Below are positions 23,391 to 43,995 of a DNA stretch of 64,000 nucleotides, in pieces. A program made the position numbers and the translations under genes. Source of the stretch: Clostridia bacterium (GTDB lineage: Bacteria > Bacillota > Clostridia > Christensenellales > QALW01). The stretch spans positions 9,175-73,174 of the forward strand of contig JAZQII010000090.1 of NCBI GenBank assembly GCA_045541035.1, read 5' to 3'. The notes beneath the pieces are model-generated. The model had not been told where the DNA came from, did not search any database, and saw only the letters and a program-made list of their open reading frames with translations. How positions within the stretch are numbered: position 1 is the stretch's first letter; the number at the start of each line of letters is the position of its first letter.

Positions 23391-23417
23391 AAAAATAGCG
23401 GCTACAACGTAGCCGCT

Positions 23418-23608
23418 CAGAGCACTGACAAACCCCTGCAAACACAAACCCCTGCAAAAATTTTGCAGGGGTTTGTTTCCATCGTTGCGTTTCACTTGCA
23501 AAATGCGGTCATTTACGTCTGTGTAAACTCCCTTTTTTGCAAGTTCAGCGCCTTGGCTTGCAAGGGTTTCTCGAACTCTGACAGTCTGGTGACTTTGTCA
23601 GCAGACTG
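23418..23608 (+). mobile_element. ~190-bp terminator-associated MITE, copy 1 (flanks not duplicated)
   Basis: Ends CAGAGCACTGACAAA / TTTGTCAGCAGACTG; highly similar to 31898..32087 and 43777..43966; left flank hairpin AGCGGCTAC-aac-GTAGCCGCT, right flank a different hairpin. Confidence 0.85.
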
Positions 23609-23762
23609 AGACCTCTGAAAAAAATCAGAGGACATTTTTTATAAATTTCTTTGCTTTTTCGACCTGATTTTTTTCCTTTTGAAGCGAACTTGTGGTTTAA
23701 AAAAATACCGACCACAACATATGGCATATGACAAAAAAATATAAAGTTTTTACAAAAAACAG

Positions 23763-23791
23763 TTGACAAGTATTGACTTTTCTGTTAAACT
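23763..23791 (+). promoter_or_regulatory. Probable rpoBC promoter
   Basis: TTGACA-17-TAAACT with TG extension. Confidence 0.55.
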
Positions 23792-23938
23792 TGACAATTG
23801 TATAAAACTATAATATGGGGTAAATTGCGCACATTTTATGTGGGTAAGGGGATTTTATCCCCAAAATGCCCAAAACACGGGAGTTTTTGGCATTTGCAAA
23901 TTTACTTCGTTACCAATCAAGATTAGGAGAGTGAAAGT

Positions 23939-26900
23939 ATGCTTCATAAGGTATTGAACGCAGCAGAAACCGCTAAGGAAGACAGATTATCCTTTGCAGA
24001 AATCGATGCGGCTTTAGAGATGCCCGATCTGATTGAGATCCAGAAAAATTCCTACAACAAATTTGTTAAGGAAGATCTTGGTCCTATCGTAAGGGATTTC
24101 TCACCCATCGACGATTTTTCAGGTGCAATGAGTCTGGAATTCCTGGACTGCTACATAGAGAATGCACCTAAGTACTCCATTGAGGAGTGCAAGGACAGAG
24201 ACGTTACTTACGCCGCACCTATGCGCGTAAAGGTTCGTCTTACACTTAAAAATGATGACGGAACTGTTCGAGAGATTCTTGAACAGGATGTTTTCATGGG
24301 TGATTTCCCGCTTATGACGCCTACGGGTACCTTTATCATAAACGGCGCTGAACGTGTTGTTGCTTCTCAGCTCGTGCGTTCACCCGGCTGTTATTTTGCT
24401 GATGATAAGGCAGCCGGCAAATTCCAATTCGGCGCAACCCTTATACCCAACCGCGGTGCATGGATGGAATTTGAAATTGATAATGCAAACGTATTTTCAG
24501 TTAAAGTTGACAGAAGCCGTAAGGTTTCTATCACTGCACTTCTTCGTGCATTAGGTTTCTCAAGCGATGAACAGTTAATTGAACTTTTAGGCGAAAGCGA
24601 AGTTTTAAAGGCTACTATCGAGCATGACCACCAGAGCAACATTTTCAACGAACTTGACGGTCTTACCGAGATGTACAAGCGTATCCGTCCCGGTGAAAAT
24701 GCTGAAGAAAAGATCATGCGTGACAGACTTACTTCCAGCTTCTTTGAGAGCCGTCATTACGATCTTGCACGCGTTGGACGTTATAAGTTCAATAAGAAAC
24801 TTGCTCTTGCTTCAAGAATCGAAGGTCACGTTGCCGCAGAAGACGTTATTTCTCCTGACGGTGAAGTGCTTGTTGAAAAAGGTCAGGTTATTTCAACAGA
24901 AAAAGCATATGAAATTCAGAATGCAGGCGTTATGCTTGTAAATCTTAATATCACTCTTAAAAACGAGTCAGGCGAGGAGACTGTAAAGACCGTTCGCGTT
25001 ATGTCCAACGGCTTTATCGATCCTAAAGCATATCTTAACTTTGATCCCAAAGAAGTTGGAATCAAGGAGTACGTTCATTACGATTCTTTGATGAAGATCC
25101 TTTCCGAATGCTCAACGGACGAGCAGATCAAAGCACGTCTTGTTGCCGATATGGAAGATCTTTCACCTGAACATCTTTATATGTCAGATATCGTTGCAAG
25201 CATCAACTATATCATCACTCTTTGTGAAGGTCATGGCGATCTTGATGATATCGACCACCTTGGCAACCGTCGTGTTCGCTGCGTAGGTGAACTTTTACAG
25301 AACCAGCTTCGCGTTGGTCTTTCAAGAATGGAACGTGTTATCCGCGAAAGAATGACAAGTCAGTCCATTGACAGCGTTTCACCTGCATCACTTATAAATA
25401 TCCGTCCCGTATCTGCAGTTATCCGCGAGTTCTTCGGTTCATCACAGCTTTCACAGTTCATGGATCAGAACAACCCCCTTGCAGAACTTACCCATAAGCG
25501 CCGTCTTTCAGCGTTGGGTCCCGGCGGTCTTAACCGTGACCGTCCTTCATTTGAGGTTCGTGACGTTCACCATTCACACTACGGAAGAATGTGCCCCATC
25601 GAAACTCCTGAAGGTAAGAACATCGGTCTTATCGGTTCACTTGCAACTTATGCACGTATTAACGAATACGGCTTTATGGAATCACCCTACCGCAAGGTAG
25701 ATAAGGAAAACGGTGTGGTAACAAACGAAGTTGTTTATCTTGCCGCTGATGATGAGGACCGTTATATTATCGCTCAGGCAAACGAGCCTATCGATGAAAA
25801 CGGACGTTTTGTAAACGAAGTTGTTTCAGCACGTAGTAAAGAAGATTTCTTACGTGTTTCCGTTCACGAAGTTGATTATATCGACGTTTCACCCAAACAG
25901 GTAGTATCAGTTGCAACTGCAATGATCCCCTTCCTTGAAAACGATGACGCTTCCCGTGCTCTGATGGGTGCAAACATGCAGCGTCAGGCAGTTCCGCTTT
26001 TAAGAACCGAGGCACCTATCGTTGGTACCGGTATCGAATATAAAGCAGCACGCGACAGCGGTGTTTCTGTTCTTTCTCAGGGCCCCGGTGTTGTTGAATA
26101 CGTTGATGCAGATAAGATTATCGTTAAGCATGATAACGGTGAAACGATTACCTATGAATTGTTAAAATACCGCCGTTCCAACCAGGGAACCTGCATCAAT
26201 CAGGTGCCCATCGTTGAAAAAGGTCAGCGCGTTGAATATAAGACCACTCTTGCAGACGGTCCTTCAACAAGTCAGGGCGAACTTTCATTGGGCAGAAATA
26301 TCGTTATTGCCTTCATGCCCTGGAACGGTTATAACTACGAAGACGCTATGCTCATTTCAGAGCGTCTTGCCCGTGATGATATCTTCACCACCATTCATAT
26401 TGAGGAGTACGAGTGCGAAGCACGTGATACCAAACTCGGTCCTGAAGAGATCACCCACGATATTCCCAACGTAGGCGAGGATATGCGCAGAAATCTTGAT
26501 GAGGAAGGTATTATCCGCATCGGTGCTGAAGTTCATTCAGGCGATATTCTTGTTGGTAAGGTTACACCTAAGGGTGAAACTGACGTTACTGCTGAAGAAA
26601 AACTTCTTCATGCAATTTTCTCAAACAACGCAAAAGAAGTTCGTGATACTTCACTTCGTGCACCTCACGGTGAAGGCGGCGTTGTTGTTGATATTAAGAT
26701 CTTTACCCGTGAGAATAAAGATGAACTTTCTCCCGGCGTAAACAAAATGGTTCGTGTATATCTTGCGCAGAAGCGTAAGATCCATGCCGGCGATAAGATG
26801 GCAGGCCGTCACGGAAACAAGGGTGTTATTTCCCGTGTTCTTCCCGAAGAGGATATGCCCTTTATGCCCGACGGCACACCCGTTCAGATCTGCCTTAACC

Positions 26901-28195
26901 CCTTGGGCGTTCCTTCACGTATGAACGTTGGTCAGGTTCTTGAAGTTCACTTGGGTATTGCCGCAAAGAAATTAGGCATTAAGATCGCAACTCCCGTTTT
27001 CGACGGTGCACACGAAGCAGATATTGAAAAACTTTCCCTTGCTTCAAAACTTTTAGAGAAGATCGATACTCTTCTTACCTTTGCAGTACGTTTGCGCTCA
27101 ACAGAGGAAATTCCCGTTGTTGACGGTGCATTAGGTCATACTGCAGGTCAGCTTCTTGAAATGGGTAAAGTACTCCGCGGCAAAGATCAGCCTGATTATG
27201 ACGGCGGTAAGATCGACGTTGAAGCCTACGATAAGGAGTTCCTTGAAATCAAGGATCTTGCTTATGATAACGAGGTTGAAGATAAGTTCGCTCTTGCAGA
27301 CCGTATCGTTGCTCTTGCTGATAAGTATTTTGTTGCAACCGCCAAGATTTTAGGCGATATGGCACCTTTATTCGGTCTTGAAAAGATTGAAAACAAGAAT
27401 AAGAAAGAAGAAACTGCACAGCAGGAACTTTGTGAATATGCAGGCAACATCTTTACCGGTAAGACCATTCTTTACGACGGACGTACCGGCGAACCCTTCG
27501 ATAACCCCGTTACCGTTGGTTGTATGTATATGATCAAACTTATTCACATGGTTGACGATAAGATCCACGCCCGTTCAACAGGTCCTTACTCACTTGTTAC
27601 CCAGCAGCCCCTCGGCGGTAAAGCCCAGTTCGGCGGTCAGCGTTTCGGTGAAATGGAAGTTTGGGCTCTTGAAGCTTACGGTGCAGCACATACACTTCAG
27701 GAAATTCTTACAATCAAGTCCGATGACGTTGTTGGCCGTGTTAAGGCTTATGAGGCTATCGTTAAGGGACAGAACGTTCCTGAACCCGGTATCCCCGAAT
27801 CCTTCAAGGTTCTTTTAGAAGAACTCCGTTCACTTGCTCTTGACGTTAAGATTCTTACGGAAGAACATAAGGAAGTTGAGATGCGCGAGCTTCTTGACGA
27901 TGACAGAGACGTTGTTGAATACGTTGACGAAAAGGAAAGAAATGCTCCCGTCGGCGATCTCCTTGCAATGCTCGGTGATCTTGATGATGAAGATCTTGAC
28001 GATCTTGACGACGATGAAGATTTTGACGAACTCGGCGATCTTGACGATGAAGACGGAATTGATATTCTTGACGGCATCGAAGAAGATGAAGAAGATATGT
28101 TCGAGGATGAGGAAATGTCTTTAGATGATGAACTCGATCTCTTTGGTGATGATGAAGAAGATGAGTTTGATGAAGACGACGAGGCTGAGGAATAA
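23939..28195 (+). CDS. rpoB: DNA-directed RNA polymerase beta subunit
   Basis: [46 protein letters not shown]; lineage insertion and acidic tail. Confidence 0.99.
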
Positions 28196-28252
28196 TCAGC
28201 ACACCCAACTTTAAGAAAAAAGTTGACAATTTGATGAGAGGAAGATGAAGCC

Positions 28253-31861: not shown

Positions 31862-31897
31862 TAAATATAGAAAGTCAGCCTGAAATACGGCTGACTT

Positions 31898-32087
31898 CAG
31901 AGCACTGACAAACCCATGCAAACATAATCTCCTGCAAAAAATTTGCAGGAGATTATTTGCTTTGTTGCATTCACTTGCAAAATTCGGTCATTTACCGTCA
32001 TGTAAACTCCCTCTTTTGCAAGTTCTGCGCCTTGCCTTGCATAGGTTTCTCGAACTCTGACAGTCTGCTGACAAAGTCAGCAGACTG
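31898..32087 (+). mobile_element. ~190-bp MITE, copy 2, flanked by a 26-bp direct repeat of the rpoC terminator
   Basis: AAGTCAGCCTGAAATACGGCTGACTT at 31872-31897 and 32088-32113. Confidence 0.9.
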
Positions 32088-32118
32088 AAGTCAGCCTGAA
32101 ATACGGCTGACTTTTTGT
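32088..32118 (+). terminator. rpoBC terminator (right-hand duplicated copy with U-tract)
   Basis: AAGTCAGCC-tgaaatac-GGCTGACTT + TTT. Confidence 0.8.
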
Positions 32119-32285: not shown

Positions 32286-35200
32286 ATGAAAAAACTTTTA
32301 AGCTTAGTTCTCGTTCTTGCAATGCTTATTTCATGCGTAAGCATGGTTTCGATCGTTGCAGGCGGAAGCGAAAACGTCGGCGTAAAGCTTACTGCTACTA
32401 AGGCTCTGGCTGAAACTCAGGCATTTAACTACGTTAATGCAGGGCTTAGCGCAAGTGACGTTAAAAACGGCACCATAATGAAAACCTACAAGGTAACTAA
32501 CCCTACCGATCACTCGGTTATAGTTACTGTTGAATGGCGCGACGGATGGACAGAACTTAAGGGACACGATGATGAAGCAAAAACAATCACTGTTCTCCCA
32601 AAGACAACTGTGCCCTTCGGTCTTATGGTTGCAGTTGAAGATGATAACACTATCTCCTATAACAGTGGCGCAGCAAGCGCTCAACTTGCAAACATCGTTT
32701 TGCGTATTGATACCTTCTCTGCTATGGCAGCAGGCGAAAGCATCTACGTTTCTTGGGATGGCTATGATAAGCAGCCTGCCGATTTCACAACCGGCGGTCA
32801 GGGCGGCAATGCATACTCCTTTGAAAGCGTTGCATCCGTTCCTGCACCTCAGGTTAAGGCAGTTACAAACGGCGATGCTCAGGCAGGTTCCATAAACTGG
32901 GATATGATCCACGGCGGTGTAACCACCATTGTTAAGGACCCTGATAACACATCAAACAATATTGCACAGTTTGACCCCCAGGGCGGTAAGTATGCTTCAA
33001 TCGCATTTAACTTAGGCCCTGCTATCATCAAAGATGCTGAGTATGGTTATGCTGGCGGCGGCGCAGGCGAATATAAACTCACATTCCGCGCTAAGGCTGA
33101 AGCAGGTAAGGGCGGCAATTTCAATTTCGTTCTTAACTCAATGAACCATCAGGAAAAGGATACTATCAATAAGTATACCGGCTTAAACGCCACGTCAGGC
33201 AGCTATAAGACTTATACCACAACACCTATTGAACTTACTGATACTTGGAACACCTTTGAGATCACCTTTAAGGTTGAACAGGAATTCCTTGATAAACTTA
33301 AGGCTCTCTATGAATCAGCTCATTCAAATGCAAGAAAGACCTATGATCTTGTTCTTCGACTTGATGGCTCAACTCAAGGTTTTGCAAGCGAAGTCTTCAA
33401 ATATTTTGTAGATGACGTTAAGATCGAAAAGGCTTCAACTGATCCCGTAGGCCTTAAGTTTGAGATCACCGAGGATATCGGCGCAGGCTATCCTATCTGG
33501 AGAAAAGATAACCCCGGCTTCACTCAGACAATGGCTGATGCAAGCAATAACATCAACCTTTCCTATGATGTTTATAACACCAGCACCGAAGAGATCAGCA
33601 TTGATATTCAGATCCAGAAGGGCTGGAACCCCACATATGCAGTAAAAACTCTTACAATTCCTGCAGGTCAGAAGGCAACGGCGGCTTTTACTGTTGCAAC
33701 TGACGGCAACGGCAACGTTCTTAAGAGCGGTGCAGCTTTCTCAACACTTCAAGAACTTTCGATCCGTGTTCAAATAAATAACGGTTCACTTAAGAGTGCA
33801 GGCACATCATTTGTTATTGCCGCACCTATGGGTGACGTTATCTATAACATCGCTGATGCTTCAATTATGTCAGGCAACGGCACAGGCAAAACTGCTAAGA
33901 CAGTTGTAACATCACTTCCCGCAGTTGCAACACCTACTCCCGTTGTTGATAAAACCGTTGTTAACGGTGATGCTGAAAACGGCAAGACCGGTTGGAGTGT
34001 ATTTTCAGCAGCAGGTGGCACGACAACTATCGTTACTCCCGGTGCTGACGGCACAGGCCACGCAGCTAAATTTACTGCTACCGGCAAGTACGATTCTATC
34101 GGCTTTGATTTAGGTCCTGCTATCGTTCAGGATGCTGAACAAGGCTATAAGGGCGGCGGCGCAGGTAGATACACAGTTACCTTCAAGGCTAAGGCTGATG
34201 CAGGCAAGAGCGGAAAGTTCGCTTTCGTTCTTAACTCACAGCTCCATGCAAGTGAGGGTTCAAACCACAATGTTGGCGGCATTGTTCAGCAACTTCCCAC
34301 ACACAGCTATCTTACCGGTATTAAGTCAATTGAACTTACCGATCAGTGGCAGGAATATACAATTACATTTAACGTACCTGAAAACTTCCTTGAAGCAGTT
34401 AAAATGCTTCGTAACAGCACTAATGCAACTGCATCCAGAGCATACGAACTTATTCTCCGTCTTGACGGTTCAGGTGCTGTAAGCGCATTTGCAAACAATG
34501 AGTTTTTCTCATACTATGTAGATGACGTTACAATTCAAAAGGATGCAGTAGCAACTGCAACACCTGTTGCAACACCTGTTGTTACACCTACACCCACAGC
34601 TGTTCCCACAGTTCCCGTTGGTCTTGAACTTAAGGTTTCAGAAGCACTTGGCGCATCCGCTAACTTCTATTTCCTTTCAAAGCCCGGCGCACTCGCAGCT
34701 GATGCAACTGCTAACGGCACAAAGGACGTAACATACACAATTTATAACACATCCGATAAGGTTGCACACGTTCAGTTCTCACTTCAGTGCACCATCAACA
34801 ACAGCTGGCAGCCCATCAGCGGCGCAGTAGTAAGCGTTGATATTCCCGCAAACGGAAGCAAGAATGTTACTTATACCATTGAAAACATTGTAAGCGGCGA
34901 AGTTACAAAGACCTATGGCGGTCACACCGATACATTTGCACTTAACGAGCTTATGCTCCGCGTTGGCTTCACCTTTGAAGGCGGCGAAACTGTTGGCGAT
35001 GCTATCATTATTGCTGCAGATGCAAGCGATAACATCTATAACGGTCAGACAAGTGTAAGAAAGATCACAACCGCAAAGGTTTTCACTCTTCCCACAACAG
35101 CAACACCTGTTCCCACCGCAACTGCAACACCCACTCCTACACCTACTCCCGCAGCAAACAAGGTAGTTGCAAACGGTAACGTTGAAGACGGTCTTACAAA

Positions 35201-38200
35201 TTGGAACACATTCGCAGGTGCATCAGGCGGTACTCTTGAACGCGTTCAGCCCGGTGCAAACGGCACAGGTAATGCTATTAAGTTTACACCTGCCAATAAG
35301 TACACCACTTCAATGTTTGATTTAGGCCCCGCTATTATTAAGGACGCTGCAAAAGGCTATAACGGCGGCAGCGCAGGAACCTATAAGGTTACGTTCTATG
35401 CAAAGGTTGAAGCAGGCACACATTTAAGCACCGGATTCTACCCAACACTTAACTCTCAGCTTCATATGAATAAGGGTAATCAGTTAGGTTCTCATACCTT
35501 TACGGTTAACACTTACACTCCCGCAACTCAGTCAATCACGCTTACAGATGCTTGGCAGAAGTATGAAGTTACATTCATCGTATCAGAAGAATACCTTGAA
35601 AACATTATGGCAGCTTACGCTAACGGCGAAACAAAAGCTTATGAGTTAGGTCTTCGTATGGATGGCGCAGGCACAGGTCTTGCATTTAATCAGGAATTAT
35701 ATCCCTATTATCTTGACGAAGTAACAATCGAAAAGGTTGTAGCAACACCTACACCTACTGCAACACCCACACCTACCGGCGAACCCGTTGGTGTTAAGAT
35801 CGATGTTACTGAAGATCTTGCTGGCGGTTACGTTTACTGGCGTGCTACAGACCTTGGCATAACCGAGGCTATGGCAGTTGATAACGTTATTACTATTAAG
35901 AATGACGTTTACAACACAAGCGATCACGAGATCATTGTTCAGACAATGCTTCAGAACGGCTGGAGCGGATTTGAAAACGGTTCAGTATTTAAGACCATTC
36001 CCGCACAGTCAAAGATGACTCTCGAAATTAAGGTTAAGACTGACGGCAACGGCAATGCAGTTAAGGCTGACGGCACAGTTATCTGCGCACTTTCAGCACT
36101 TACTTATCGCTTTGAATTTAAGCCCAATTCAATTATGACTGCAGGCACATCCTTCGTTATTGCAGGCTTTGACGGCATCTTTAAGACAAACGGCGGTGCA
36201 AAATCATCCACTGCAATGACAGGTAGCTTCACAAAGACACTTGTTTATGAACTTCCCACATTAGTAGAAGCAACACCTACACCTACTCCCGCACCTACTC
36301 CCGTAGCTAATAAGGAAGTTACCAACGGTGACGTTGAAAACGGACTTGTAAATTGGGATGAGTTTGCAGCAGCAGGCGGTAAGGTTGAACTTACAACACC
36401 CGGTGCTGACGGCACAGGCAGTGCGGCTAAATTTACTGCTTCAGGTGTATATGATTCAATCGCATTTGATTTAGGTCCTGCAATCATCAACGCTCCTGAA
36501 CACGGCTATAACGGCGGTGGCGCAGGTAGCTATACTATCGGCTTCTGGGTAAAGGCTGATGCTAACGAAACAAACAACAAGTTCAATTTCGTTCTTAACA
36601 GCCAAGCACATCACCAGACCAATAATAAGGTTGGCGCTTACACAGTTACAATGAACACCTACATCACATCAGGTTCTGTTACAACCACAACTGAGTGGCA
36701 GTATTTTGAGACAACAGTTGCTGTAACACAAGCATTCCTTGATAACCTTAAGGGAATCTATGATGCAGGTAAGCCTTCCGCATATCAGCTTATCCTCCGT
36801 CTTGACGGTGCAACAAATGCATTTAAGGATAGCCAGTTCTTCAGCTATTATATTGATGACGTAACAATCGAAAAGGCAAAGGATCCCATTGGTATTAAGA
36901 TGACCACAACTGAAGCTTATACAGGCGATCACTATATGACCGGCGCCACAAAGGTACTTCAGGCAGATCCTTCCTTCACAGGCAAAAAGTCAATTACCTA
37001 TACCTTCTATAACCCCAGCGACGTTAATATGAACATCGCACTCAGCATGCAGGTTACTCATAAGAAGGCTGACGGCAACAACACTTGGGCAGATATTACA
37101 AAGGCTGCTTCAGGCGTTGCAGCAGCAGGCAAAAAGGTAACTCTTACCTTCACCTTCGATGTTGAAAACGGTATGGTTAAGGTTACAAACGGCGGTTCAA
37201 CTGCACTTTACTCACTTGATCAGCTCTTCTTACGTATCAACGTTAAGACAATGGGCGCAAACGAAGCAGGTAAAGAACTTATCATCGGCGCTCCCGACAA
37301 GAACGATATGCTCTATACTATCTCAAGCGCTATGAAGGGTAAAATTACTCCCGTAACTGAACTTCCTGAAATGGAAGAAACAACTCCTGCTGATTTCGCT
37401 CCCAAGAGAGAAAACGGCAACGCTGAAAACGGTCTTGTAAACTGGGGCACAATCCACGGCGGTAAGATCGAGCACGTAACTCCCGGTGCTTTAGGCACAG
37501 GTCATGCAGTTAAACTTATCCCCGCAGCAGGTGGCAAGTATAACTCAATCGCATTTGACCTTGGTCCCTGGATTATCTATGATAAGGCTAACGGTTATAA
37601 CGGCGGCGGCGCAGGTAAGTACGAAGTTACTTTCTACGCTAAGGGCGAAGGCACAGGCAAGTTCAATATCATGCTTAACTCACAGCTTCATACAAGTCAG
37701 GCTGATGCTAAGAAGTATGTTGGTTCAGCAGCAGTTGGTAACACCTATATCGGCGGCGGCTCAATCGAACTTACAAAGAGCTGGAAGAAGTACACTGTAA
37801 CATTCGATGTTAAGACCGAATGGTATCAGATGATCAAGAAGCTTCACAACAGCACACATCCCAATGCAGCACTTGCATATCAGCTTGTATTGCGTTTCGA
37901 CGGTGCATCAACTGCATTTAAGGACAGACAGTTCGCATACTATGTTGACCAGGTATCTGTAAAGAAGACAGCAAGTTATTCAAATAAGGCTGCAACGGGC
38001 GTAATGCTTGAACTTCTTGAAGATAGTTCATCATCAGCATGGTTCAAGACCGCAACAGGTGTTGTAACAAAGGCTGACGTTGTTGACGGCGAACTTACAA
38101 AGACCTATAAGATTACCAATAACGGTGAAGAAGATATCAGAATTCAGTTCTCACTTCAGGCAACTGTTAAGGTAAACGGCAAAGATTCATGGGCAGGTCC

Positions 38201-38588
38201 CAGTGCAGGTGAATGGTTTGATATTCCTGCTGGTGAAACAGTAGAAGTATCTTTTACCATGGAAGTAAATGAAGATGGTACTGTAACCGTTGCAGATAGC
38301 GACGTTAAGCTTGACGCCTTCTTTGCACGCTTCAACTTGTCAAATGCTGAAGGTCAGAATGAATTTGTAAAGGGCCTTAAGTTTACAATTATGGGCTCCA
38401 ATGCAAATGACTATAAGGCTATTGCAAAACTTCAGACATCTAATGCAAATATTTGGCAGATAACTCCCATCTATACAAAGAGCAATTCTTCCGAAAGTGG
38501 CGACATGCTTCCCGTTGCACTTATCGCAACAGTAGTGGTTGCTTCAGCTGGTTTGGTGGTAGTTGCTAAGAAGAAAAAGGAAAACTAA
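32286..38588 (+). CDS. 2100-aa cell-surface protein with alternating A and CBM4/9-like B domains, PT linkers and C-terminal anchor
   Basis: Signal peptide; five repeats NG(D/N)xxxG..W...FDLGP..GYxGG.AG.Y...LRxDG...YYxDxV; six interleaved A domains; SGD + TM + KKKK. Confidence 0.8.
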   Translation: MKKLLSLVLVLAMLISCVSMVSIVAGGSENVGVKLTATKALAETQAFNYVNAGLSASDVKNGTIMKTYKVTNPTDHSVIVTVEWRDGWTELKGHDDEAKTITVLPKTTVPFGLMVAVEDDNTISYNSGAASAQLANIVLRIDTFSAMAAGESIYVSWDGYDKQPADFTTGGQGGNAYSFESVASVPAPQVKAVTNGDAQAGSINWDMIHGGVTTIVKDPDNTSNNIAQFDPQGGKYASIAFNLGPAIIKDAEYGYAGGGAGEYKLTFRAKAEAGKGGNFNFVLNSMNHQEKDTINKYTGLNATSGSYKTYTTTPIELTDTWNTFEITFKVEQEFLDKLKALYESAHSNARKTYDLVLRLDGSTQGFASEVFKYFVDDVKIEKASTDPVGLKFEITEDIGAGYPIWRKDNPGFTQTMADASNNINLSYDVYNTSTEEISIDIQIQKGWNPTYAVKTLTIPAGQKATAAFTVATDGNGNVLKSGAAFSTLQELSIRVQINNGSLKSAGTSFVIAAPMGDVIYNIADASIMSGNGTGKTAKTVVTSLPAVATPTPVVDKTVVNGDAENGKTGWSVFSAAGGTTTIVTPGADGTGHAAKFTATGKYDSIGFDLGPAIVQDAEQGYKGGGAGRYTVTFKAKADAGKSGKFAFVLNSQLHASEGSNHNVGGIVQQLPTHSYLTGIKSIELTDQWQEYTITFNVPENFLEAVKMLRNSTNATASRAYELILRLDGSGAVSAFANNEFFSYYVDDVTIQKDAVATATPVATPVVTPTPTAVPTVPVGLELKVSEALGASANFYFLSKPGALAADATANGTKDVTYTIYNTSDKVAHVQFSLQCTINNSWQPISGAVVSVDIPANGSKNVTYTIENIVSGEVTKTYGGHTDTFALNELMLRVGFTFEGGETVGDAIIIAADASDNIYNGQTSVRKITTAKVFTLPTTATPVPTATATPTPTPTPAANKVVANGNVEDGLTNWNTFAGASGGTLERVQPGANGTGNAIKFTPANKYTTSMFDLGPAIIKDAAKGYNGGSAGTYKVTFYAKVEAGTHLSTGFYPTLNSQLHMNKGNQLGSHTFTVNTYTPATQSITLTDAWQKYEVTFIVSEEYLENIMAAYANGETKAYELGLRMDGAGTGLAFNQELYPYYLDEVTIEKVVATPTPTATPTPTGEPVGVKIDVTEDLAGGYVYWRATDLGITEAMAVDNVITIKNDVYNTSDHEIIVQTMLQNGWSGFENGSVFKTIPAQSKMTLEIKVKTDGNGNAVKADGTVICALSALTYRFEFKPNSIMTAGTSFVIAGFDGIFKTNGGAKSSTAMTGSFTKTLVYELPTLVEATPTPTPAPTPVANKEVTNGDVENGLVNWDEFAAAGGKVELTTPGADGTGSAAKFTASGVYDSIAFDLGPAIINAPEHGYNGGGAGSYTIGFWVKADANETNNKFNFVLNSQAHHQTNNKVGAYTVTMNTYITSGSVTTTTEWQYFETTVAVTQAFLDNLKGIYDAGKPSAYQLILRLDGATNAFKDSQFFSYYIDDVTIEKAKDPIGIKMTTTEAYTGDHYMTGATKVLQADPSFTGKKSITYTFYNPSDVNMNIALSMQVTHKKADGNNTWADITKAASGVAAAGKKVTLTFTFDVENGMVKVTNGGSTALYSLDQLFLRINVKTMGANEAGKELIIGAPDKNDMLYTISSAMKGKITPVTELPEMEETTPADFAPKRENGNAENGLVNWGTIHGGKIEHVTPGALGTGHAVKLIPAAGGKYNSIAFDLGPWIIYDKANGYNGGGAGKYEVTFYAKGEGTGKFNIMLNSQLHTSQADAKKYVGSAAVGNTYIGGGSIELTKSWKKYTVTFDVKTEWYQMIKKLHNSTHPNAALAYQLVLRFDGASTAFKDRQFAYYVDQVSVKKTASYSNKAATGVMLELLEDSSSSAWFKTATGVVTKADVVDGELTKTYKITNNGEEDIRIQFSLQATVKVNGKDSWAGPSAGEWFDIPAGETVEVSFTMEVNEDGTVTVADSDVKLDAFFARFNLSNAEGQNEFVKGLKFTIMGSNANDYKAIAKLQTSNANIWQITPIYTKSNSSESGDMLPVALIATVVVASAGLVVVAKKKKEN

Positions 38589-38590
38589 TT

Positions 38591-38751
38591 AAAATTCCGA
38601 TAAACTTCGCAAACATAATCCCCGAAAACATTTGTTTTCGGGGATTATTTGCTTTGTTGCGCCAAAAGATAAAAACTCAGTCATTTACGTTTTTGTAAAC
38701 TCCTTCGTTTTTACTTTTGCGCGCCTTGCCTTGCTCGTTTCTCGAAATTTT
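38591..38751 (+). repeat. Diverged relative of the MITE core (hairpin + GTCATTTAC/GTAAACTCC module)
   Basis: GCAAAC-hairpin-TTGTTGC...GTCATTTACG..GTAAACTCC...GCGCCTTGCCTTGC..GTTTCTCGAA; bounded by AAAATTCCGA/TCGAAATTTT. Confidence 0.7.
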
Positions 38752-38867
38752 ATGGTGCCGGCATGATTTCTAACGCTTTAGCTTGCAGAGGTTCTCGCAC
38801 TTTTTCTGCTAAAAAGGGAACGCTCAAATATTTACGTCTGTGTAAGCGCAATTGCTTTTACCCCCGC

Positions 38868-39220
38868 ACGCCTTGAATTTTAAGTTTTTTCTCACTCGCA
38901 AGGTTGAGATTCATATAAAGTTGCCGAAGGCATACCTCAATCAATGCTGAACAGAGAGAAGCATTGCATATCATCAAAACGAAGTTTTGTATATCATCAC
39001 GACAAAGTCGTGCATATCATCAATGCGAAGCATTGCATAAACTTACGCCTTGAATTTTAAGTTTTTTCTTACTCGCAAGGTTGAGATTCATATAAAGTTG
39101 CCGAAGGCATACCTCAATCAATGCTGAACAAAGAGAAGCATTGCATATCATCAAAACGAAGTTTTGTATATCATCACGACAAAGTCGTGCATATCATCAA
39201 TGCGAAGCATTGTATATCTC
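38868..39220. repeat. Tandem duplication of a ~177-bp unit containing a ~23-bp-period mini-hairpin array
   Basis: Units start ACGCCTTGAATTTTAAG at 38868 and 39045 and differ at only a few positions; internal TGYATATCATCA repeats. Confidence 0.9.
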
Positions 39221-39290
39221 ACGCCTTGGCTTGCGGAGTTTCTCGCACTTTTTCTGTTGAAATGTGGTGCGCTTTTATTGCGCCAAAAAT

Positions 39291-39317
39291 AAAAAAACTC
39301 CCCGTTTTGGGGAGTTT
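39291..39317 (-). terminator. Terminator of the HlyC/CorC gene
   Basis: AAACTCCCC-gtttt-GGGGAGTTT hairpin with upstream A-run (U-tract on minus strand). Confidence 0.75.
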
Positions 39318-39320
39318 ACG

Positions 39321-40655
39321 TTAATCTTCGTCGTCTTCGTCGTCAGATTCATCATCGTCAGACTTGGGGTTGACTTTTATAAGTATTTCGTGGGTTTTCA
39401 GTTCGTCGGCTTTAAGAATTGTAATTGAAAGATTTTCATATTCGAACTGATATCCTTCTTCGGGAATGGTTTCACATTGTTCAGTTACCCAACCGTTGAC
39501 GGTGGTTGACTCAATTGTTTCGTCTTCGGGAAGATCAAAGAATTCAAAGAATTCATCGATGGCAAGTGTTGACAGTACTTTATATTCATCGGAACTTACT
39601 TTTTCAAAGTTCTCAATTTCTTCGTCCTGCTCGTCCCAGATCTCGCCGACGATTTCTTCCAAAATGTCTTCCATAGTAACAAGACCTGCCGTTCCGCCGT
39701 ACTCATCAACAACGATAACAATATGATTGTGATCCATCTGCATTTCCTTAAAAAGCGCATCAAGATGAACGGATTCAGGAACAAAGGTAGGCTGAAAAAC
39801 TGCATCGGAAAGTTTGAAATCGGGTTCGTTGTGCCTTAAAAGATAATCGCGGGCATAGAGTATACCGGTAATATTATCGACCGTATCGCTGTAAACGGGG
39901 ATTCGGGAATAACCGCTTGAAACGATCAGATCAATAATTTCCTTATCTTCGGCATCTTCTGAAATAAGTTCAATGGCGTTTCGGGGAGTCATAATATCGC
40001 CGGCGGTAAGATGGTCAAGTTCGAACACATTTTTAATATACTCGATATTTTCTTTGTTAAGAGTACCTTCTTCAGCGCCTGCATCAAGCATTATAACGAT
40101 ATCTTCTTCTGAAACGGACTCTTCCGATTCGTTAGGATCAATGCCAAACAATCTCAAAACACCGTTTGTTGAAATGGTAAGAAGCCAAACAACAGGTTTC
40201 ATAACGGTTGCAAGGAACAGTATAAAACCGCAAACGGCATCGGCAAACTTTTCGCAGTTCTTCATGGCAACGCGCTTGGGAACAAGTTCGCCAAAGACCA
40301 ATGTGAAGAATGATAAAATAATAGTAATAACCACAACTGAAATACTATCAATGGTGCCTGCAAGATTTTCGGCAAGATTAAAGGTTTTCATAATCCATTG
40401 AGTAAGAGGTTCTGAAAAACTATCTGCCGCAAAAGCGGAACCTAAAAATCCTGCAAGGGTTATGCCAACCTGAATTGTGGACAAAAATCCCGTAGGGTTT
40501 TTTATCATTTTCAGCATTTTTTTTGCTTTTTTATCGCCGTCCTCAGCACGAGCCTTGACTTTGTTTTCATTTAATGAAACAACGGCAATTTCAGTAGCAG
40601 CAAAAAAGGCGTTTAGTGCAATAAGAATAATTTGTAATATCAATAATTTTATCAT
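39321..40655 (-). CDS. Hemolysin-family HlyC/CorC (CNNM/DUF21-CBS-CorC) Mg2+/Co2+ transporter
   Basis: LNAFFAATEIA, FLSTIQVGIT, FGELVPK, IMTPR, GYSRIPVY, VDEYGGTAGLVTMEDILEEIVG; start re-called at MIKLLI (GGAGG RBS). Confidence 0.9.
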   Translation of the reverse strand: MIKLLILQIILIALNAFFAATEIAVVSLNENKVKARAEDGDKKAKKMLKMIKNPTGFLSTIQVGITLAGFLGSAFAADSFSEPLTQWIMKTFNLAENLAGTIDSISVVVITIILSFFTLVFGELVPKRVAMKNCEKFADAVCGFILFLATVMKPVVWLLTISTNGVLRLFGIDPNESEESVSEEDIVIMLDAGAEEGTLNKENIEYIKNVFELDHLTAGDIMTPRNAIELISEDAEDKEIIDLIVSSGYSRIPVYSDTVDNITGILYARDYLLRHNEPDFKLSDAVFQPTFVPESVHLDALFKEMQMDHNHIVIVVDEYGGTAGLVTMEDILEEIVGEIWDEQDEEIENFEKVSSDEYKVLSTLAIDEFFEFFDLPEDETIESTTVNGWVTEQCETIPEEGYQFEYENLSITILKADELKTHEILIKVNPKSDDDESDDEDDED

Positions 40656-40693
40656 ATCATATAACCTCCATATTTTTTGAACCAATTAAAAAA

Positions 40694-40807
40694 TCAACAA
40701 CGTAAAAATTGCAGATTTAAAGGGATAAATATGGGTTTCGGGGTGATATGATTTTTTTCAGTTACACAAGAAAAAACGAGCGTGCAACTTCGGGGAAGCG
40801 GATCCAA
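40694..40807 (-). CDS. Putative 37-aa proline-containing leader peptide (MgtL-like) upstream of the HlyC/CorC gene
   Basis: AAGGAG + 8 nt + TTG; MDPLPRSCTLVFSCVTEKNHITPKPIFIPLNLQFLRC*; lies between the promoter and the main CDS. Confidence 0.55.
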   Translation of the reverse strand: MDPLPRSCTLVFSCVTEKNHITPKPIFIPLNLQFLRC

Positions 40808-40838
40808 CAAACCATCTCCTTAAAATTTATTACTAAAA

Positions 40839-40867
40839 ATTATACCATATATAAAGAATAAATGCAA
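40839..40867 (-). promoter_or_regulatory. sigmaA promoter for leader ORF + HlyC/CorC
   Basis: Minus strand TTGCAT-17-TATAAT with TG extension. Confidence 0.75.
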
Positions 40868-40955
40868 GCATTTAACGGGATTTTAAAAAAAGTGCTTTAT
40901 TTATTGAAGTTTTAAGTGTATAATATTGAAAATGTTAAAATTGAGGTATTTTTAA

Positions 40956-41720
40956 ATGCGTGTAGTTATCAAAATCGGAACAAGTACGTTAACTCATTCA
41001 ACGGGGCATCTTAACATAAGACGTGTTGAAGAGATCTGTAAAATAATAAGCGATATAAAAAATGCGGGACATCAGGTTATAATGGTGTCGTCAGGCGCTA
41101 TCGGCATGGGCGTTGGAAAACTTGGATTAAGTGAGCGCCCCAAAGATATTCCCACCAAGCAGGCGGCGGCGGCAGTAGGTCAGTGCGAACTGATGTACGT
41201 TTACGATAAGTTGTTTTCTGAATATAATCACACCGTTGCACAGTTGCTTATTACCGGTGATGACGTTGAGAACGACGTGCGCCACGAAAATTTCTCAAAC
41301 ACTCTTAACCGTTTGTTGGAACTTGACGCGCTTCCGATCATAAATGAAAATGACACCGTTTCAACAAAGGAGATCGTTATCGGTGATAACGATACTTTAG
41401 CGGCAATTGTTGCAAAAAGTGTTAAGGCAGACCTTTTGATTCTTATGTCAGATATTGACGGGCTTTATACTGCAGATCCACACAAAGATGAGAACGCTGA
41501 ACTTATTCCTATTGTAAATAAGATAGATGAAAAAATCGAAGCACTTGCAGGGGCAAGCGGAAGCGCACTTGGCACGGGCGGAATGGTAACAAAACTTAAT
41601 GCCGCAAAAATGTGCTTTGAAGTAAATTGCGATATGGTCATCACAAACGGCGATAATCCCCAAAATCTTTACGGAATTATCAACGGCGAAAATATCGGCA
41701 CGCGTTTTACGGAGAAATAA
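40956..41720 (+). CDS. proB: Glutamate 5-kinase (short form, no PUA domain)
   Basis: VIKIGTSTLT, VSSGAI, KQAAAAVGQ, INENDTV, GDNDTL, GTGGMVTK. Confidence 0.95.
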   Translation: MRVVIKIGTSTLTHSTGHLNIRRVEEICKIISDIKNAGHQVIMVSSGAIGMGVGKLGLSERPKDIPTKQAAAAVGQCELMYVYDKLFSEYNHTVAQLLITGDDVENDVRHENFSNTLNRLLELDALPIINENDTVSTKEIVIGDNDTLAAIVAKSVKADLLILMSDIDGLYTADPHKDENAELIPIVNKIDEKIEALAGASGSALGTGGMVTKLNAAKMCFEVNCDMVITNGDNPQNLYGIINGENIGTRFTEK

Positions 41721-41721
41721 T

Positions 41722-42954
41722 ATGATTGAAATGTTGAAAAGAGCCAAAAAGGCTAAAATCGAGGTATCAAATTCCGACACCGCAAAAAGAGATCTTGCCC
41801 TGAAATATATGGCAGAAGCGCTTATTGAGCATCAGGAAGAAATTCTTGAAGCTAATAAACAAGACGTTGAAAAGGCACGGGGCACAGTTTCCGACGTAAT
41901 GATCGACAGACTTATGCTTACCGCTCAAAGAATCGAGGGTATGGCAAAAGGTATTCTTGAAGTTAAAAATCTGCCTGATCCGGTAAACAGAGTTCTCGAT
42001 GAATATGTTCGCGAAGACGGACTTAAAATAACAAAAGTATCTGTTCCCATGGGCGTTGTTGCAATTATCTATGAAAGCCGACCTAACGTTACAAGCGATG
42101 CGGCGGCATTAGCAATAAAAAGCGGCAACGTGTGTGTTCTTCGCGGCGGAAAAGAAGCCTTTAATTCGGCAAACGCCATAGTAAACGCCCTTAAAGAAGG
42201 TCTTAAAAAAGCAGGTCTTTGCGAAGACGCGGTAAACCTTGTTCAGGATATAACAAGAGAAAGCGCAAACCAACTTATGACGGCTGATAAATACGTGGAT
42301 CTTCTTATTCCCCGCGGTGGTGCAGGACTTATTTCTGCCTGCGTTAAAAATGCAACCGTACCTTGCATACAGACGGGAACGGGTATTTGCCACGTTTACG
42401 TTGAAAAGTCTGCCGATCAGGAAAAGGCACTTAAAATAATCGAAAATGCAAAAACAAGCAGACCTTCCGTATGTAACGCTGAAGAAGTGTTGCTTGTTGA
42501 TAAAGAGATCGCAAAAGAGTTCTTGCCTAAAGTGAAGGAACTTCTTACAAAAAAACATAACGTTGAACTGCGCCTTGATGAGTATTCTCAAAAAATTATT
42601 GAAGGCACTCCCGCAGGCGAAAATGATTTCGATACTGAATTTTTAGATTATATTTTGGCTGTAAAATGTGTTGAAAACGTTTTTGAAGCAGTTGAACATA
42701 TTTCGGAACATTCAACGGGCCACAGTGAAGCGATAGTTACCGAAAACGAAGAAGCCAAAAAGGTTTTTGTTTCTTCCGTTGATTCTTCTTCCGTTTACGT
42801 TAATTCTTCAACACGTTTCACCGATGGCGGAGAGTTCGGTTTAGGTTGTGAAATGGGCATTTCCACCCAAAAACTTCACGCCCGCGGACCTATGGGATTA
42901 AGGGAACTTAACACCTATAAATACGTCATTGTTGGTGACGGTCATATAAGATAG
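41722..42954 (+). CDS. proA: Gamma-glutamyl phosphate reductase
   Basis: IIYESRPNVT, IPRGGAGLI, PSVCNA, TRFTDGGEFG, STQKLHARGPMG. Confidence 0.95.
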   Translation: MIEMLKRAKKAKIEVSNSDTAKRDLALKYMAEALIEHQEEILEANKQDVEKARGTVSDVMIDRLMLTAQRIEGMAKGILEVKNLPDPVNRVLDEYVREDGLKITKVSVPMGVVAIIYESRPNVTSDAAALAIKSGNVCVLRGGKEAFNSANAIVNALKEGLKKAGLCEDAVNLVQDITRESANQLMTADKYVDLLIPRGGAGLISACVKNATVPCIQTGTGICHVYVEKSADQEKALKIIENAKTSRPSVCNAEEVLLVDKEIAKEFLPKVKELLTKKHNVELRLDEYSQKIIEGTPAGENDFDTEFLDYILAVKCVENVFEAVEHISEHSTGHSEAIVTENEEAKKVFVSSVDSSSVYVNSSTRFTDGGEFGLGCEMGISTQKLHARGPMGLRELNTYKYVIVGDGHIR

Positions 42955-42965
42955 GAGATTTTATT

Positions 42966-43751
42966 ATGAAATACGGTTTTATCGGTTGCGGTAACATGGG
43001 CGGTGCGCTTATCCGCGCATTAAGCAAAAAAACAAAAGATATTATAATTGCCGATTTCTTTCTTGAAAAGGCACAAGCGTTGGCAGAAGAATTGGATATC
43101 GAATGGGGTACCAACGATGAAGTTGTTGACAGGGCGGACAGAATTTTCCTTGCCGTCAAACCTCAGATGATGGAGAAAGTTCTTTCTGAATTAAAAGAAC
43201 AGATTCAGGAGAGAAAACCTCTTTTAATTACCATTGCGGCAGGTCTTGAAATTAAAAAGATCGAAGAATTTGCAGGCGGAAATCTTCCCGTTATCCGCAT
43301 CATGCCCAATACTCCCGTTTCGGTTGGCGAAGGACTTATCATGTATACTTCAAACGTTCTTGCGGAAGACAGAGTTGATGACTTCGTTTCAGACATGGAG
43401 TATGCAGGTACGTTAGATAAACTTGACGAAAAACTTATTGATGCAGGCACGGCAGTTTCAGGTTGCGGTCCTGCCTATATGTATATGTTTTTAGAAGCGC
43501 TTGCCGATGGCGGTGTTGCTTGCGGTCTTCCCCGCGATAAAGCGCTTTTATATGCTTCAAAGACTATGGAAGGCGCGGCAAAACTTGCCCTTGAAAGTAA
43601 AAAACACCCCGGTGAACTTAAAGATGCGGTTTGCTCGCCCGGCGGAAGCACCATCATGGGCGTCAAGGCTCTTGAAGACGGCAATCTCCGCGCTTCAGCA
43701 GTAAATGCAGTAGTTAAGGCTTATGAGAGAAATAAAGAATTAGGAAAATAA
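42966..43751 (+). CDS. proC: Pyrroline-5-carboxylate reductase
   Basis: GFIGCGNMG, LAVKPQ, RIMPNTP, SGCGPAY, VCSPGGST. Confidence 0.95.
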   Translation: MKYGFIGCGNMGGALIRALSKKTKDIIIADFFLEKAQALAEELDIEWGTNDEVVDRADRIFLAVKPQMMEKVLSELKEQIQERKPLLITIAAGLEIKKIEEFAGGNLPVIRIMPNTPVSVGEGLIMYTSNVLAEDRVDDFVSDMEYAGTLDKLDEKLIDAGTAVSGCGPAYMYMFLEALADGGVACGLPRDKALLYASKTMEGAAKLALESKKHPGELKDAVCSPGGSTIMGVKALEDGNLRASAVNAVVKAYERNKELGK

Positions 43752-43776
43752 AAATAACGGCTCAAAATGAGCCGTT

Positions 43777-43966
43777 CAGAGCACTGACAAACCCTTACAA
43801 ACATAGCACCCTGCAAAAATTTTGCAGGGTGCTATTTCCTTCGTTACATTCACTTGCAAAATGCGGTCATTTACGTCTGTGTAAACTCCCTTTTTTGCAA
43901 GTTCAGCGCCTTGGCTTGCAAGGGTTTCTCGAACTCTGGCAGTCTGCTGACCTTGCCAGCAGACTG
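43777..43966 (+). mobile_element. ~190-bp MITE, copy 3, flanked by a 20-bp direct repeat of the proC terminator
   Basis: ACGGCTCAAAATGAGCCGTT at 43757-43776 and 43967-43986. Confidence 0.9.
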
Positions 43967-43995
43967 ACGGCTCAAAATGAGCCGTTATTTTTTTC

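Follow-up and report, generated by a model that had tools for sequence, protein, structure and literature searches.

A small gene-less mobile element of uncultured gut Clostridia that inserts at terminator hairpins and is probably moved by IS1182-family transposases

The direct repeats made by insertion sequences (IS) of the IS1182 family range from 0 to 60 bp in ISfinder. Palindromic targets and long direct repeats of variable length were described for this family by Siguier et al. 2015, as quoted in the accessible portions of PMC4923244 and PMC5678879. These same portions present the family member IS1272/TnSha1 as targeting terminator hairpins with no primary-sequence specificity (PMC4923244), with the same hairpin being hit repeatedly and independently (PMC4923244; PMC5678879). 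[quoted passage not shown] 2017, PMC5678879). Beyond these, the available part of a 2024 review (PMC10969869) mentions IS1182 zero times. Within the accessible text of these sources, our literature search recovered hairpin targeting with hairpin loss (IS1272), and whole stem-loop duplication as a model branch only; it returned no paper documenting whole-hairpin duplication for a MITE.

The element reported here is a small gene-less mobile DNA of uncultured gut Clostridia, which inserts into terminator hairpins. It is present in three copies on the forward strand of the window, the 64,000-nucleotide stretch of contig JAZQII010000090.1 that was analyzed: copy 1 (23418-23608, 191 bp), copy 2 (31898-32087, 190 bp) and copy 3 (43777-43966, 190 bp). 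Copy 2 lies between the two members of an exact 26-bp target-site duplication (31872-31897 and 32088-32113, forward strand) and copy 3 between those of an exact 20-bp duplication (43757-43776 and 43967-43986, forward strand). In both cases each repeat is a complete hairpin and a T-run is present after the downstream hairpin copy only; at copy 2 the terminator is thereby regenerated. Copy 1, in turn, has an unrelated hairpin at each side: its left junction lies exactly 3' of the stem of the upstream gene's terminator (23397-23417, forward strand), which has no T-run here, and its right end adjoins a second, dissimilar hairpin that is followed by a T-run (23609-23633, forward strand).

All three copies have an internal hairpin at element positions 27-59 (in copy 2 at 31924-31956 with a 12-bp stem; equivalents at 23444-23476 and 43803-43835) and a right end whose last 27 bases fold on themselves (32061-32087 in copy 2; equivalents at 23582-23608 and 43940-43966), both being features without an assigned strand. 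The right end is made up of two inverted copies of an IS1182-like terminal repeat with 3 bases between them: among 45 aligned copies this loop is AAA in copy 2 and five others, and T-rich, mostly TTT, in the remaining ones. The terminal inverted repeats are seen in the identity of the left end with the reverse complement of the right end at 12 of 16 positions, read from the copy sequences as the first three bases and the block at positions 8-15; the predicted fold also pairs the left end with the inner right repeat. A prior sequence-only reading of this DNA had described three ~190-bp copies, hairpin repeats of 26 and 20 bp at two of them and by implication none at copy 1, along with the internal hairpin and the self-folding right end, and each of these proved to be in place. 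Two further traces lie on the same strand of the window. One is a diverged relative with ~73% identity (38590-38750), which keeps the position of the internal hairpin and the conserved core, lacks the terminal hairpin and forms the start of a complex repeat extending to ~39290. The other is a degenerate left-end fragment located immediately 3' of a hairpin (20018-20035), an orphan left end recorded as C90 29191.

The length of the element ranges from 186 to 192 bp and its longest ORF has 43 codons' worth of protein (43 aa), which bears out the claimed lack of coding capacity. Its home genome has 31 complete copies and 55 orphaned end fragments, of which 30 are left and 25 right ends. Most of these fragments sit at contig ends, as do all the partial copies starting at element position 23-26 in two other genomes (G007 and G012). 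Of 20 further genomes of the genus, 9 carry the element, and it was absent from all 40 genomes examined outside the genus (0/40).

The element is mobile: sister species have four orthologous empty sites, each with a single hairpin, where the filled sites have two hairpin copies. The empty counterpart of the copy 2 site (G012:C227:8409-8434) has the 26-bp hairpin in single copy with a flank identity of 95-97%, and the same empty allele is present in contigs of two metagenome runs from two studies (X1 and X4), which join across copy 2; in X4, 26 letters at the joint fit either side. The empty sites for three other copies were scored by the overlap of the flank alignments on the subject, namely 14 bp (G012:C125), 24 bp (G012:C206) and 20 bp (G007:C75), the sequence being inspected for G012:C125 alone. 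The sequence-only reading had called for a search for empty alleles, and those in four sites of sister species and two metagenome runs bear out the mobility that it proposed. Additionally, another genome (G015) shows an independent insertion in the terminator orthologous to the copy 2 site, in a different hairpin and with a 24-bp repeat. Five genomes were searched for an empty copy 3 site and none was found: there the downstream region lacks conservation, and the orthologous gene has other terminators.

Flanking 30-mers that fold at -8 kcal/mol or better are seen on the left in 26 of 29 cases and on the right in 24 of 28, as against 2.8% of 2000 random genome 30-mers; hence, the hairpin flanks are not due to chance. 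Together with the empty sites, this agrees with the earlier proposal of a mobile non-coding element that targets terminator hairpins. Among the distinct copies, 39 have flanks that could be used; a census of these yielded repeats of at least 15 bp in 21 (12 exact, 7 with one mismatch and 2 with two), clearly related hairpins with indels or altered loops in 11 (a class assigned by eye), and unrelated hairpins at the two sides in 7, including window copy 1. Loop flips between the flank hairpins were also classed by eye; direct-versus-inverted scoring is confounded by the A-run/T-run context. The 21 copies with clear repeats have duplications of 17-33 bp, and in 19 of these the cuts are symmetric about the hairpin dyad within 1 bp; the one clearly asymmetric duplication belongs to a copy on contig C91. 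Thus, the hairpin is both the target and the unit that is duplicated, with mirror-symmetric cuts. Of 40 copies, 39 are preceded by a T and 37 are followed by an A; beyond these junction bases the targets show no primary-sequence consensus. Loss of the target stem-loop without duplication, as in IS1272, is not what the MITE displays. The variable-length duplication of the hairpin, with a full terminator rebuilt downstream, that had been read from the window therefore holds across copies, the T-run being on the distal side. The staggered cuts it placed at the base of a cruciform hold in part: their mirror symmetry stands, but the cut positions are often 0-7 pairs inside the largest possible palindrome rather than strictly at its base.

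The copies with mismatched hairpins admit two explanations, and we give about even odds to their being assembly chimeras or products of inter-copy recombination rather than a second outcome of insertion. The genome is a short-read MAG with 55 element ends at contig breaks; mismatched hairpins are often seen around 1.5-kb IS copies in contigs of short-read metagenomes, and around none of the 3 copies fetched from a one-contig genome. At the locus of copy 1, G012 lacks the element and retains the upstream gene's terminator in full, T-run included; there the locus is divided over two contig ends, with additional DNA between the copy 1 flanks, the arrangement to be expected if a deletion between two copies had occurred. 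However, the flanks of copy 1 match the facing contig ends of G012 (the C97 end and the C227 start), and on the downstream side colinearity between that genome and the window extends over 7.5 kb; therefore, the junction in the window is probably real. Loss of target DNA on insertion, moreover, is documented for IS1272 in the accessible part of PMC4923244.

Autonomous IS1182-family elements show matching behavior and matching tips. The genome G002 has, on its contig C30, a 1513-bp element coding for a 471-aa transposase (NF033551, score 381.8 bits, cut-off 270), with the same terminal CAG...CTG as the MITE and an exact 43-bp repeat of an entire terminator hairpin. Across the order, 14 loci were collected, with some of their ends read by eye: both ends are visible in 12, and six of these have whole-hairpin repeats of 17-43 bp, among them all 3 fetched IS copies of the one-contig genome. 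Exact whole-hairpin repeats of 20-32 bp are likewise found in 17 of 59 evaluable metagenome loci. The elements of G002 and G010 have a T before and an A after them, like the MITE, and their last seven bases are those of its right tip; one relative from the order has an end matching the MITE at 15 of 17 positions, as counted by eye. At its left tip the MITE agrees with a second type of tip, found in G041, and weakly with the common IS tip; in one of the order-wide loci the five-base tip is that of the MITE's left end. The resemblance to IS1182 elements, which the sequence-only reading had pointed out, is accordingly upheld by NF033551 elements of both the genus and the order that share CAG...CTG and the hairpin repeats.

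A transposase gene was sought in the element's own assembly. A profile search for the IS1182-type domains PF13751, PF05598 and PF01609, a tblastn search using two IS1182 transposases as queries and a blastn search using the 1513-bp G002 element all returned no match, and self-comparison of the genome for long near-identical repeats recovered ordinary genes only. With a completeness of 96% and no contig shorter than 1621 bp, this assembly could have lost a collapsed contig of a 1.5-kb IS. A BLAST comparison of the three window copies with 109 fetched IS loci likewise detected no similarity beyond the short tips. The MITE has no ORF, and its assembly no gene, for an IS1182 transposase (NF033551, or DUF772 with DDE_Tnp_1_6): this bars the label 'IS1182 element' but not mobilization by one, and is expected for a MITE. 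Within the genus the CAG-ended clade is confined to G002 and G010, which are free of the MITE, and is not in any MITE-bearing genome searched. The trans-acting transposase proposed in the sequence-only reading is a putative partner, none having been found in the home genome.

We interpret the element as a ~190-bp non-coding MITE of the IS1182 family that is moved in trans, at hairpins, by an IS1182-family DDE transposase, and place the probability of this at roughly 85%. The most likely partner would be the CAG...CTG-ended clade, found in sister species and in the whole order. Its transposase would pick hairpin- or cruciform-capable DNA, in practice intrinsic terminators, presumably recognizing the target as an extruded structure, and each strand would receive one of the two element ends, at points that mirror each other close to the foot of the stem. 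For the polarity of strand attack this scheme is modeled on the standard DDE reaction and on 'pathway b' of the IS1272 model (Wan et al. 2017). Gap repair would then duplicate all that lies between the joints, comprising the loop along with the stem, wholly or for the most part, such that the hairpin would set the length of the duplication: 17-33 bp in the MITE and up to 43 bp in its full-length relatives. The T-run would remain with the distal hairpin copy, restoring a complete terminator behind the element, and the insertion would therefore do little harm. More tentatively, one might go further and see here a shape-reading clade that docks on the extruded cruciform, with the rebuilt terminator serving as a safe-harbor strategy and the inner module of the MITE being possibly functional. 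This module has no counterpart in the full-length elements and could be a transposase-loading scaffold or a read-through RNA, while repair templated by hairpins may have left the frequent loop flips behind as scars.

Target choice might instead not be structure-guided: a near-fixed stagger of ~20-26 bp, centered on palindromes that are read as duplex DNA, would leave the hairpin merely seeming to determine the length. Most duplications indeed measure 17-28 bp regardless of the maximal stem length, up to 7 more potential base pairs lie outside the duplication, and the repeats of the metagenome relatives fall within the same 20-32 bp noted above. We nevertheless judge this unlikely, given that the full range extends from 17 to 43 bp, that the outside pairs are, as read by eye, mostly A:T pairs contributed by the A-run and T-run, that the targets have nothing in common in primary sequence besides the junction bases, and that IS1272 of the same family acts on sequence-unrelated hairpins, as far as the accessible parts of the sources describe it.

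The conserved stems raise the question of an RNA. Over 45 distinct copies the stem sequence of the internal hairpin varies by subfamily with its pairing always kept: five pairs are changed at both sides, pairing holds in 98.9% of the cells and the observed score was not attained by any of 500 shuffles. The stem covariation is real, and the compensatory changes first noticed in the window extend to the whole alignment. On this basis the element could chiefly carry a functional structured RNA, such as a 3'-UTR-derived small RNA or a cis-acting stabilizer, with the stems being maintained by selection on the transcript. Three stems covary in all: besides the internal hairpin, a second stem shows four mutually compensated versions, read by eye where the alignment is out of register, and a third hairpin has one pair switched in 5 copies. 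Moreover, the fold greatly exceeds shuffled sequences in stability (plus strand z = -7.9), and the location behind a terminator stem devoid of its T-run predicts read-through into the element. However, 533 of 540 cells of the internal hairpin are Watson-Crick pairs, with wobbles numbering just 1 on the plus strand and 4 on the minus strand; many of the pair switches are transversion swaps for which no G:U intermediate is possible; and the minus strand folds better still (z = -10.6). The orientation relative to genes is also mixed (n = 25: 16 convergent, 5 co-directional, 3 opposite and 1 divergent), and a search of the elements with Rfam 15 gave no match at the gathering thresholds, the best sub-threshold score being 23.6 bits against a cut-off of 70. 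Because the pairing is nearly strictly Watson-Crick on both strands and the orientation is mixed, an RNA function is unsupported, and the RNA-like cargo under structural selection that had been proposed is improbable. Terminator-like hairpins inside the ends of the full-length relatives offer a DNA- or IS-level reason for the stems: most simply, the conserved internal palindromes are DNA-level features, either end architecture or terminator-like hairpins, and an RNA gene is not required. As a separate observation, metatranscriptome contigs from two runs (X15 and X18) cover neighboring genes but leave the element uncovered, and weigh neither for nor against an RNA.

The MITE-bearing genomes G005 and G007 have IS1182 elements of a second clade, whose ends differ from those of the CAG-ended one and are palindromic. 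This clade is the sole source of an IS1182-family transposase seen in MITE-bearing genomes, and its protein is a full member of the family (NF033551, 395.9 bits). In G007:C54 such a palindromic-ended IS lies inside a MITE copy, adjoining the conserved right half of the latter. We see little prospect that this clade, rather than the CAG-ended one, mobilizes the MITE: its terminal repeat is different, widely conserved and unlike the MITE tips, the hairpin is replaced or no hairpin repeat is present where its flanks are seen, and the IS found inside a MITE could equally have arrived there because the internal hairpin served as a target. IS200/IS605-type and IS110-type elements and group II introns make no target duplication and require specific target motifs, and insertion by any of these was dropped in view of the long duplications and absence of a conserved target sequence.

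Structure-directed target choice by a DDE transposase has barely been studied. The dozens of natural insertions, empty sites and full-length relatives assembled here indicate a mirror-symmetric duplication that tracks the hairpin, and therefore render the mechanism directly testable in vitro. Such elements insert between the terminator stem and its T-run and produce twin terminators, which annotation pipelines and terminator predictors will misread; they also break short-read assemblies, as the element ends at contig breaks attest.

The whole-hairpin habit is common to the MITE and IS of the IS1182 family, so the MITE exemplifies a kind of element that is already known. Like the MITE, IS1272/TnSha1 of staphylococci hits terminator and other hairpins without primary-sequence specificity, but in the accessible portions of the reports it removes part or all of the stem-loop with no duplication ('stem-loop replacing'), whereas the MITE duplicates it, an outcome that corresponds to 'pathway b' in the available text of Wan et al. 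(PMC5678879). The closest likeness is to the CAG...CTG-ended IS1182 clade (the 1513-bp element of G002:C30, a 1522-bp element of G270 and gut metagenome relatives): these share the MITE's terminal trinucleotides and its junction bases (T on the left, A on the right), insert directly at hairpins, most of which are terminators, have whole-hairpin direct repeats of 17-43 bp, and in some copies have different hairpins per side. They differ from the MITE in coding for a ~470-aa transposase (NF033551) and have no detectable sequence in common with it past the tips. Classical MITEs, such as Correia/NEMIS, RUP and ERIC, are small, non-coding, multicopy, strongly folding intergenic elements with inverted-repeat ends and a transposase acting in trans, and make short duplications of fixed length. 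In contrast to these, the duplication made by the MITE described here is long, variable and equal to the structural unit of its target.

We confirmed the three window copies of the ~190-bp non-coding mobile element (MITE) that the sequence-only reading had picked out, together with the hairpin repeats around two of them; that observation is correct and far from chance. The three measure 190-191 bp. Copy 1 (23418-23608) lies between two different hairpins; copy 2 (31898-32087) has an exact 26-bp direct repeat on both sides, and copy 3 (43777-43966) an exact 20-bp one. The start of each copy directly abuts a G+C-rich hairpin located past the stop codon of a gene (3/3), and the repeats of copies 2 and 3 each amount to a whole hairpin, with a T-run only behind the downstream one. 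All copies share an internal hairpin with a 12-bp stem (element positions 27-59) and self-complementary last 27 bases; the longest ORF inside the element is at most 43 aa, and an Rfam search of it gave no match at or near the gathering thresholds.

The geometry of the duplication was examined in the 39 copies with usable flanks, out of 45 distinct ones collected from eight genomes. Direct repeats of at least 15 bp were found in 21/39 (12 exact, seven with one mismatch and two with two), the duplication spanning 17-33 bp; 11 of the 39, a class judged by eye, have related hairpins that differ in indels, in a loop that is changed or inverted, or in stem changes that compensate each other; in the remaining seven the left and right hairpins are unrelated. 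For 19 of the 21 copies with repeats, the number of potential stem pairs outside the duplication is equal on both sides within one, so the cuts mirror each other about the axis of the hairpin. They do not always fall at the foot of the largest palindrome that could form: 0-7 further pairs can lie outside, mostly A:T from the A-run and T-run as judged by eye. One copy, on contig C91, has a clearly asymmetric 22-bp duplication, an asymmetry that its empty site confirms. The base preceding the element is T in 39/40 copies and the base behind it A in 37/40; the sequence of one copy (locus L031) suggests that both are part of the element and not of the target, the empty sites being compatible with either. 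The loops of the hairpins are often inverted, with stems unchanged, between the two copies of a duplication (own-genome contigs C6, C26, C52 and C59; locus L296), and likewise between species at an empty and a filled site (G012:C125 vs the C91 copy). The loop of the element's own right-end hairpin is AAA in 6/45 copies of the alignment and otherwise T-rich, mostly TTT. Two duplication pairs (C34 and C91 17956) differ by compensatory stem changes.

Empty sites bear directly on mobility. At the site of copy 2, another genome of the genus, G012, has an empty orthologue, consisting of one 26-bp hairpin followed by the T-run, with flanks 95-97% identical. The empty allele of copy 2 is also present in two metagenome runs from two studies, whose contigs join across the insertion point; in one of these runs 26 letters fit either side of the joint. 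In a further genome (G015) the terminator at the orthologous position, whose hairpin differs in sequence, has been hit independently, and that insertion has a 24-bp repeat of its own. For three more insertions in the own genome there is an empty counterpart, where the alignments of the two flanks share 14 bp of the subject (G012:C125, where the empty-site sequence itself was inspected), 24 bp (G012:C206) and 20 bp (G007:C75), the latter two resting on this overlap. The sequence-only reading would have been undermined by a lack of hairpin repeats at other copies or of empty alleles; both were found. Structure-guided insertion with duplication of the hairpin is well supported.

Hairpins are prevalent beside the element: 30-base flanks fold at -8 kcal/mol or better in 26/29 cases on the left and 24/28 on the right, against a background of 2.8% among 2000 random 30-mers. 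For the 25 copies with ORFs on both sides, the gene context is convergent in 16, behind a co-directional gene in five, behind a gene in the opposite orientation in three and divergent in one. Hence, the targets are terminators, often bidirectional ones, and the orientation of the element with respect to transcription is not fixed. Downstream of an orthologue of the gene preceding copy 3 (locus L170, G012:C196), a terminator hairpin and the few bases past it resemble the internal hairpin region of one MITE subfamily, a likeness that could be due to chance or to an element remnant. On two metagenome contigs (L241, L265) the left end of another element starts directly past the right hairpin copy of an IS1182-type element; apparently, hairpins regenerated by one insertion get hit again, giving rise to arrays.

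The structure inside the element was scored for covariation on a 45-row alignment with five proposed helices against 500 shuffles. The helices are paired in 96.0% of cells (91.1% in the shuffles), 13 pairs change on both sides, and the covariation score was reached by 0/500 shuffles, which upholds the compensatory stem changes claimed at the outset. Sliding the partners by 1-3 columns lowers pairing to 35-50%. The internal hairpin occurs in several stem versions, each fully paired, and the second stem in four mutually compensated ones, as judged by eye with five diverged rows out of register there. The sequence-only reading had taken this as an RNA-like cargo under structural selection, an interpretation for which the covariation itself might speak. 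However, the internal hairpin is Watson-Crick in 533/540 cells, with one wobble on the plus strand and four on the minus strand; many stem switches are transversion swaps; and folding is far more stable than in shuffles on both strands (z = -7.9 on the plus and -10.6 on the minus strand). Together with the mixed orientation, these features fit DNA-level palindromes better than an RNA gene; an RNA cargo is not supported. Selection on the architecture of the ends could maintain such palindromes, or hairpin-templated repair could correct them. Full-length relatives have terminator-like hairpins just inside both ends, and the middle module of the MITE is without a counterpart in them.

A pattern scan of the own assembly (2.51 Mb, 109 contigs, 96% complete) recovered 31 complete copies and 55 orphan ends (30 left, 25 right); the orphan ends are mostly at contig ends, and the element therefore breaks the assembly. 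Twenty-eight of the 31 are 186-192 bp long, the others being a 112-bp truncation and two longer variants. The element is present in 9/20 other genomes of the genus and in 0/40 searched genomes from other genera of the family and order; the metagenome runs holding the locus are mostly from bovine gut. A 469-bp variant (C33:3619-4087, minus strand, also at ~10 contig ends) consists of the MITE with a 283-bp insert between element positions 74 and 80; this insert has terminal inverted repeats of roughly 25 bp, recurs elsewhere in the own genome (C38, C30, C60) at 80-84% identity and is probably a second small element nested inside the MITE. At 38590-39290 of the window a diverged MITE relative begins a few bases past a stop codon and is followed by fragments of further units, with a 172-bp tandem duplication (38868-39039 and 39045-39216, 98% identical). 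About 12 such relatives, at 72-83% identity, occur in the genome, often as arrays behind genes, and some have 22-23-bp terminal inverted repeats whose first five bases are those of the MITE left end. The window also holds a TPP riboswitch (20783-20884, minus strand; 66 bits vs a gathering score of 54.3), three blocks of long arrays of 69-bp (23-codon) tandem repeats (45431-48574), and tandem paralogous genes in ~3.5-kb units at 62-88% identity (3218-10328) and in five ~1.1-kb units at ~70-80% identity (33006-37650).

No IS1182-type transposase gene was detected in the own assembly by profile searches with PF13751, PF05598 and PF01609 or by tblastn with two IS1182 transposases, and self-comparison returned no long near-identical repeat resembling an IS; the shortest contig being 1621 bp, an IS of 1.5 kb collapsed into one contig could have been dropped. 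Across the genus, PF13751 matches occur in 5/21 genomes and represent two kinds of element. The first, in G005 and G007, has an IS1182-family transposase gene (~510 aa; NF033551, 395.9 bits) bounded by palindromic ends, the core repeat of which is conserved in many Bacillota relatives. The second, at G002:C30, is 1513 bp long with a 471-aa transposase (NF033551, 381.8 bits) and has the terminal CAG...CTG of the MITE, with the same preceding T and following A; a complete terminator hairpin stands on either side of it as an exact 43-bp direct repeat, with the T-run behind the second copy only. A relative in G010, 51% identical, shares these tips and has a different hairpin on each side. BLAST of the MITE against 109 fetched IS loci found no similarity beyond the tips, and the true parent is therefore not among the loci compared. 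The IS1182 link drawn from the ends stands for the ends and the hairpin behaviour, which are common to CAG-ended elements, but not for a transposase gene in the own assembly.

The CAG-ended clade behaves comparably at large. Relatives of the G002:C30 element occur in 22/401 genomes of the order; among 14 loci examined, both ends are visible in 12, some by eye. Six of these have whole-hairpin direct repeats (17, 24, 24, 24, 26 and 43 bp), including 3/3 fetched copies of a one-contig genome, as well as an element that shares its five-base tip with the MITE left end; the other six lie between two different hairpins. The end of one relative agrees with the MITE right end at 15/17 positions, by eye. 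In 67 metagenome loci (transposases 59-86% identical; 59 evaluable), exact whole-hairpin repeats of 20-32 bp were found in 17/59, and two more have related hairpins with an indel or inverted loop (by eye); most of the remainder have two different hairpins on the sides, part of which may reflect chimeric assembly across the 1.5-kb repeat. A complete Chryseobacterium genome has a distant IS1182-family element (L131-L147, 14 copies compared; transposase 36% identical), the ends of which share the inner motif of the Clostridia elements; it is bordered by an A-rich run to the left and a T-rich one to the right and has no hairpin repeat, as if terminator hairpins had been replaced. Direct repeats of the IS1182 family range from 0 to 60 bp in ISfinder. 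By its tips and target behaviour the MITE groups with the CAG-ended IS1182 clade, which would be the source of its partner transposase, the target presumably being recognized as a cruciform.

Our literature search found no paper documenting whole-terminator duplication by an IS1182-type MITE, and a 2024 review of prokaryotic MITEs (PMC10969869) mentions IS1182 0 times. The element lends itself to the study of a mode of target choice that has received little attention. Two studies provide points of comparison, and both cite Siguier et al. 2015 for some IS1182 members targeting palindromes. IS1272/TnSha1, of the IS1182 family, enters terminators and other hairpins without primary-sequence specificity and deletes part of the hairpin with no duplication (Furi et al. 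2016, PMC4923244), a mode named stem-loop-replacing transposition (Wan et al. 2017, PMC5678879). This mode fits what is seen at G007:C54 (L071/L075) and G005:C111 (L069/L074), where the palindromic-ended element sits inside a MITE copy in place of its internal hairpin; hence, one IS family may have two outcomes of insertion side by side in a single genus. In the cruciform model of Wan et al., the whole stem-loop would be duplicated if joining took place at the 5' feet, and duplication is the outcome seen for the MITE: while IS1272 insertion loses part of the hairpin, that of the MITE duplicates the whole of it.
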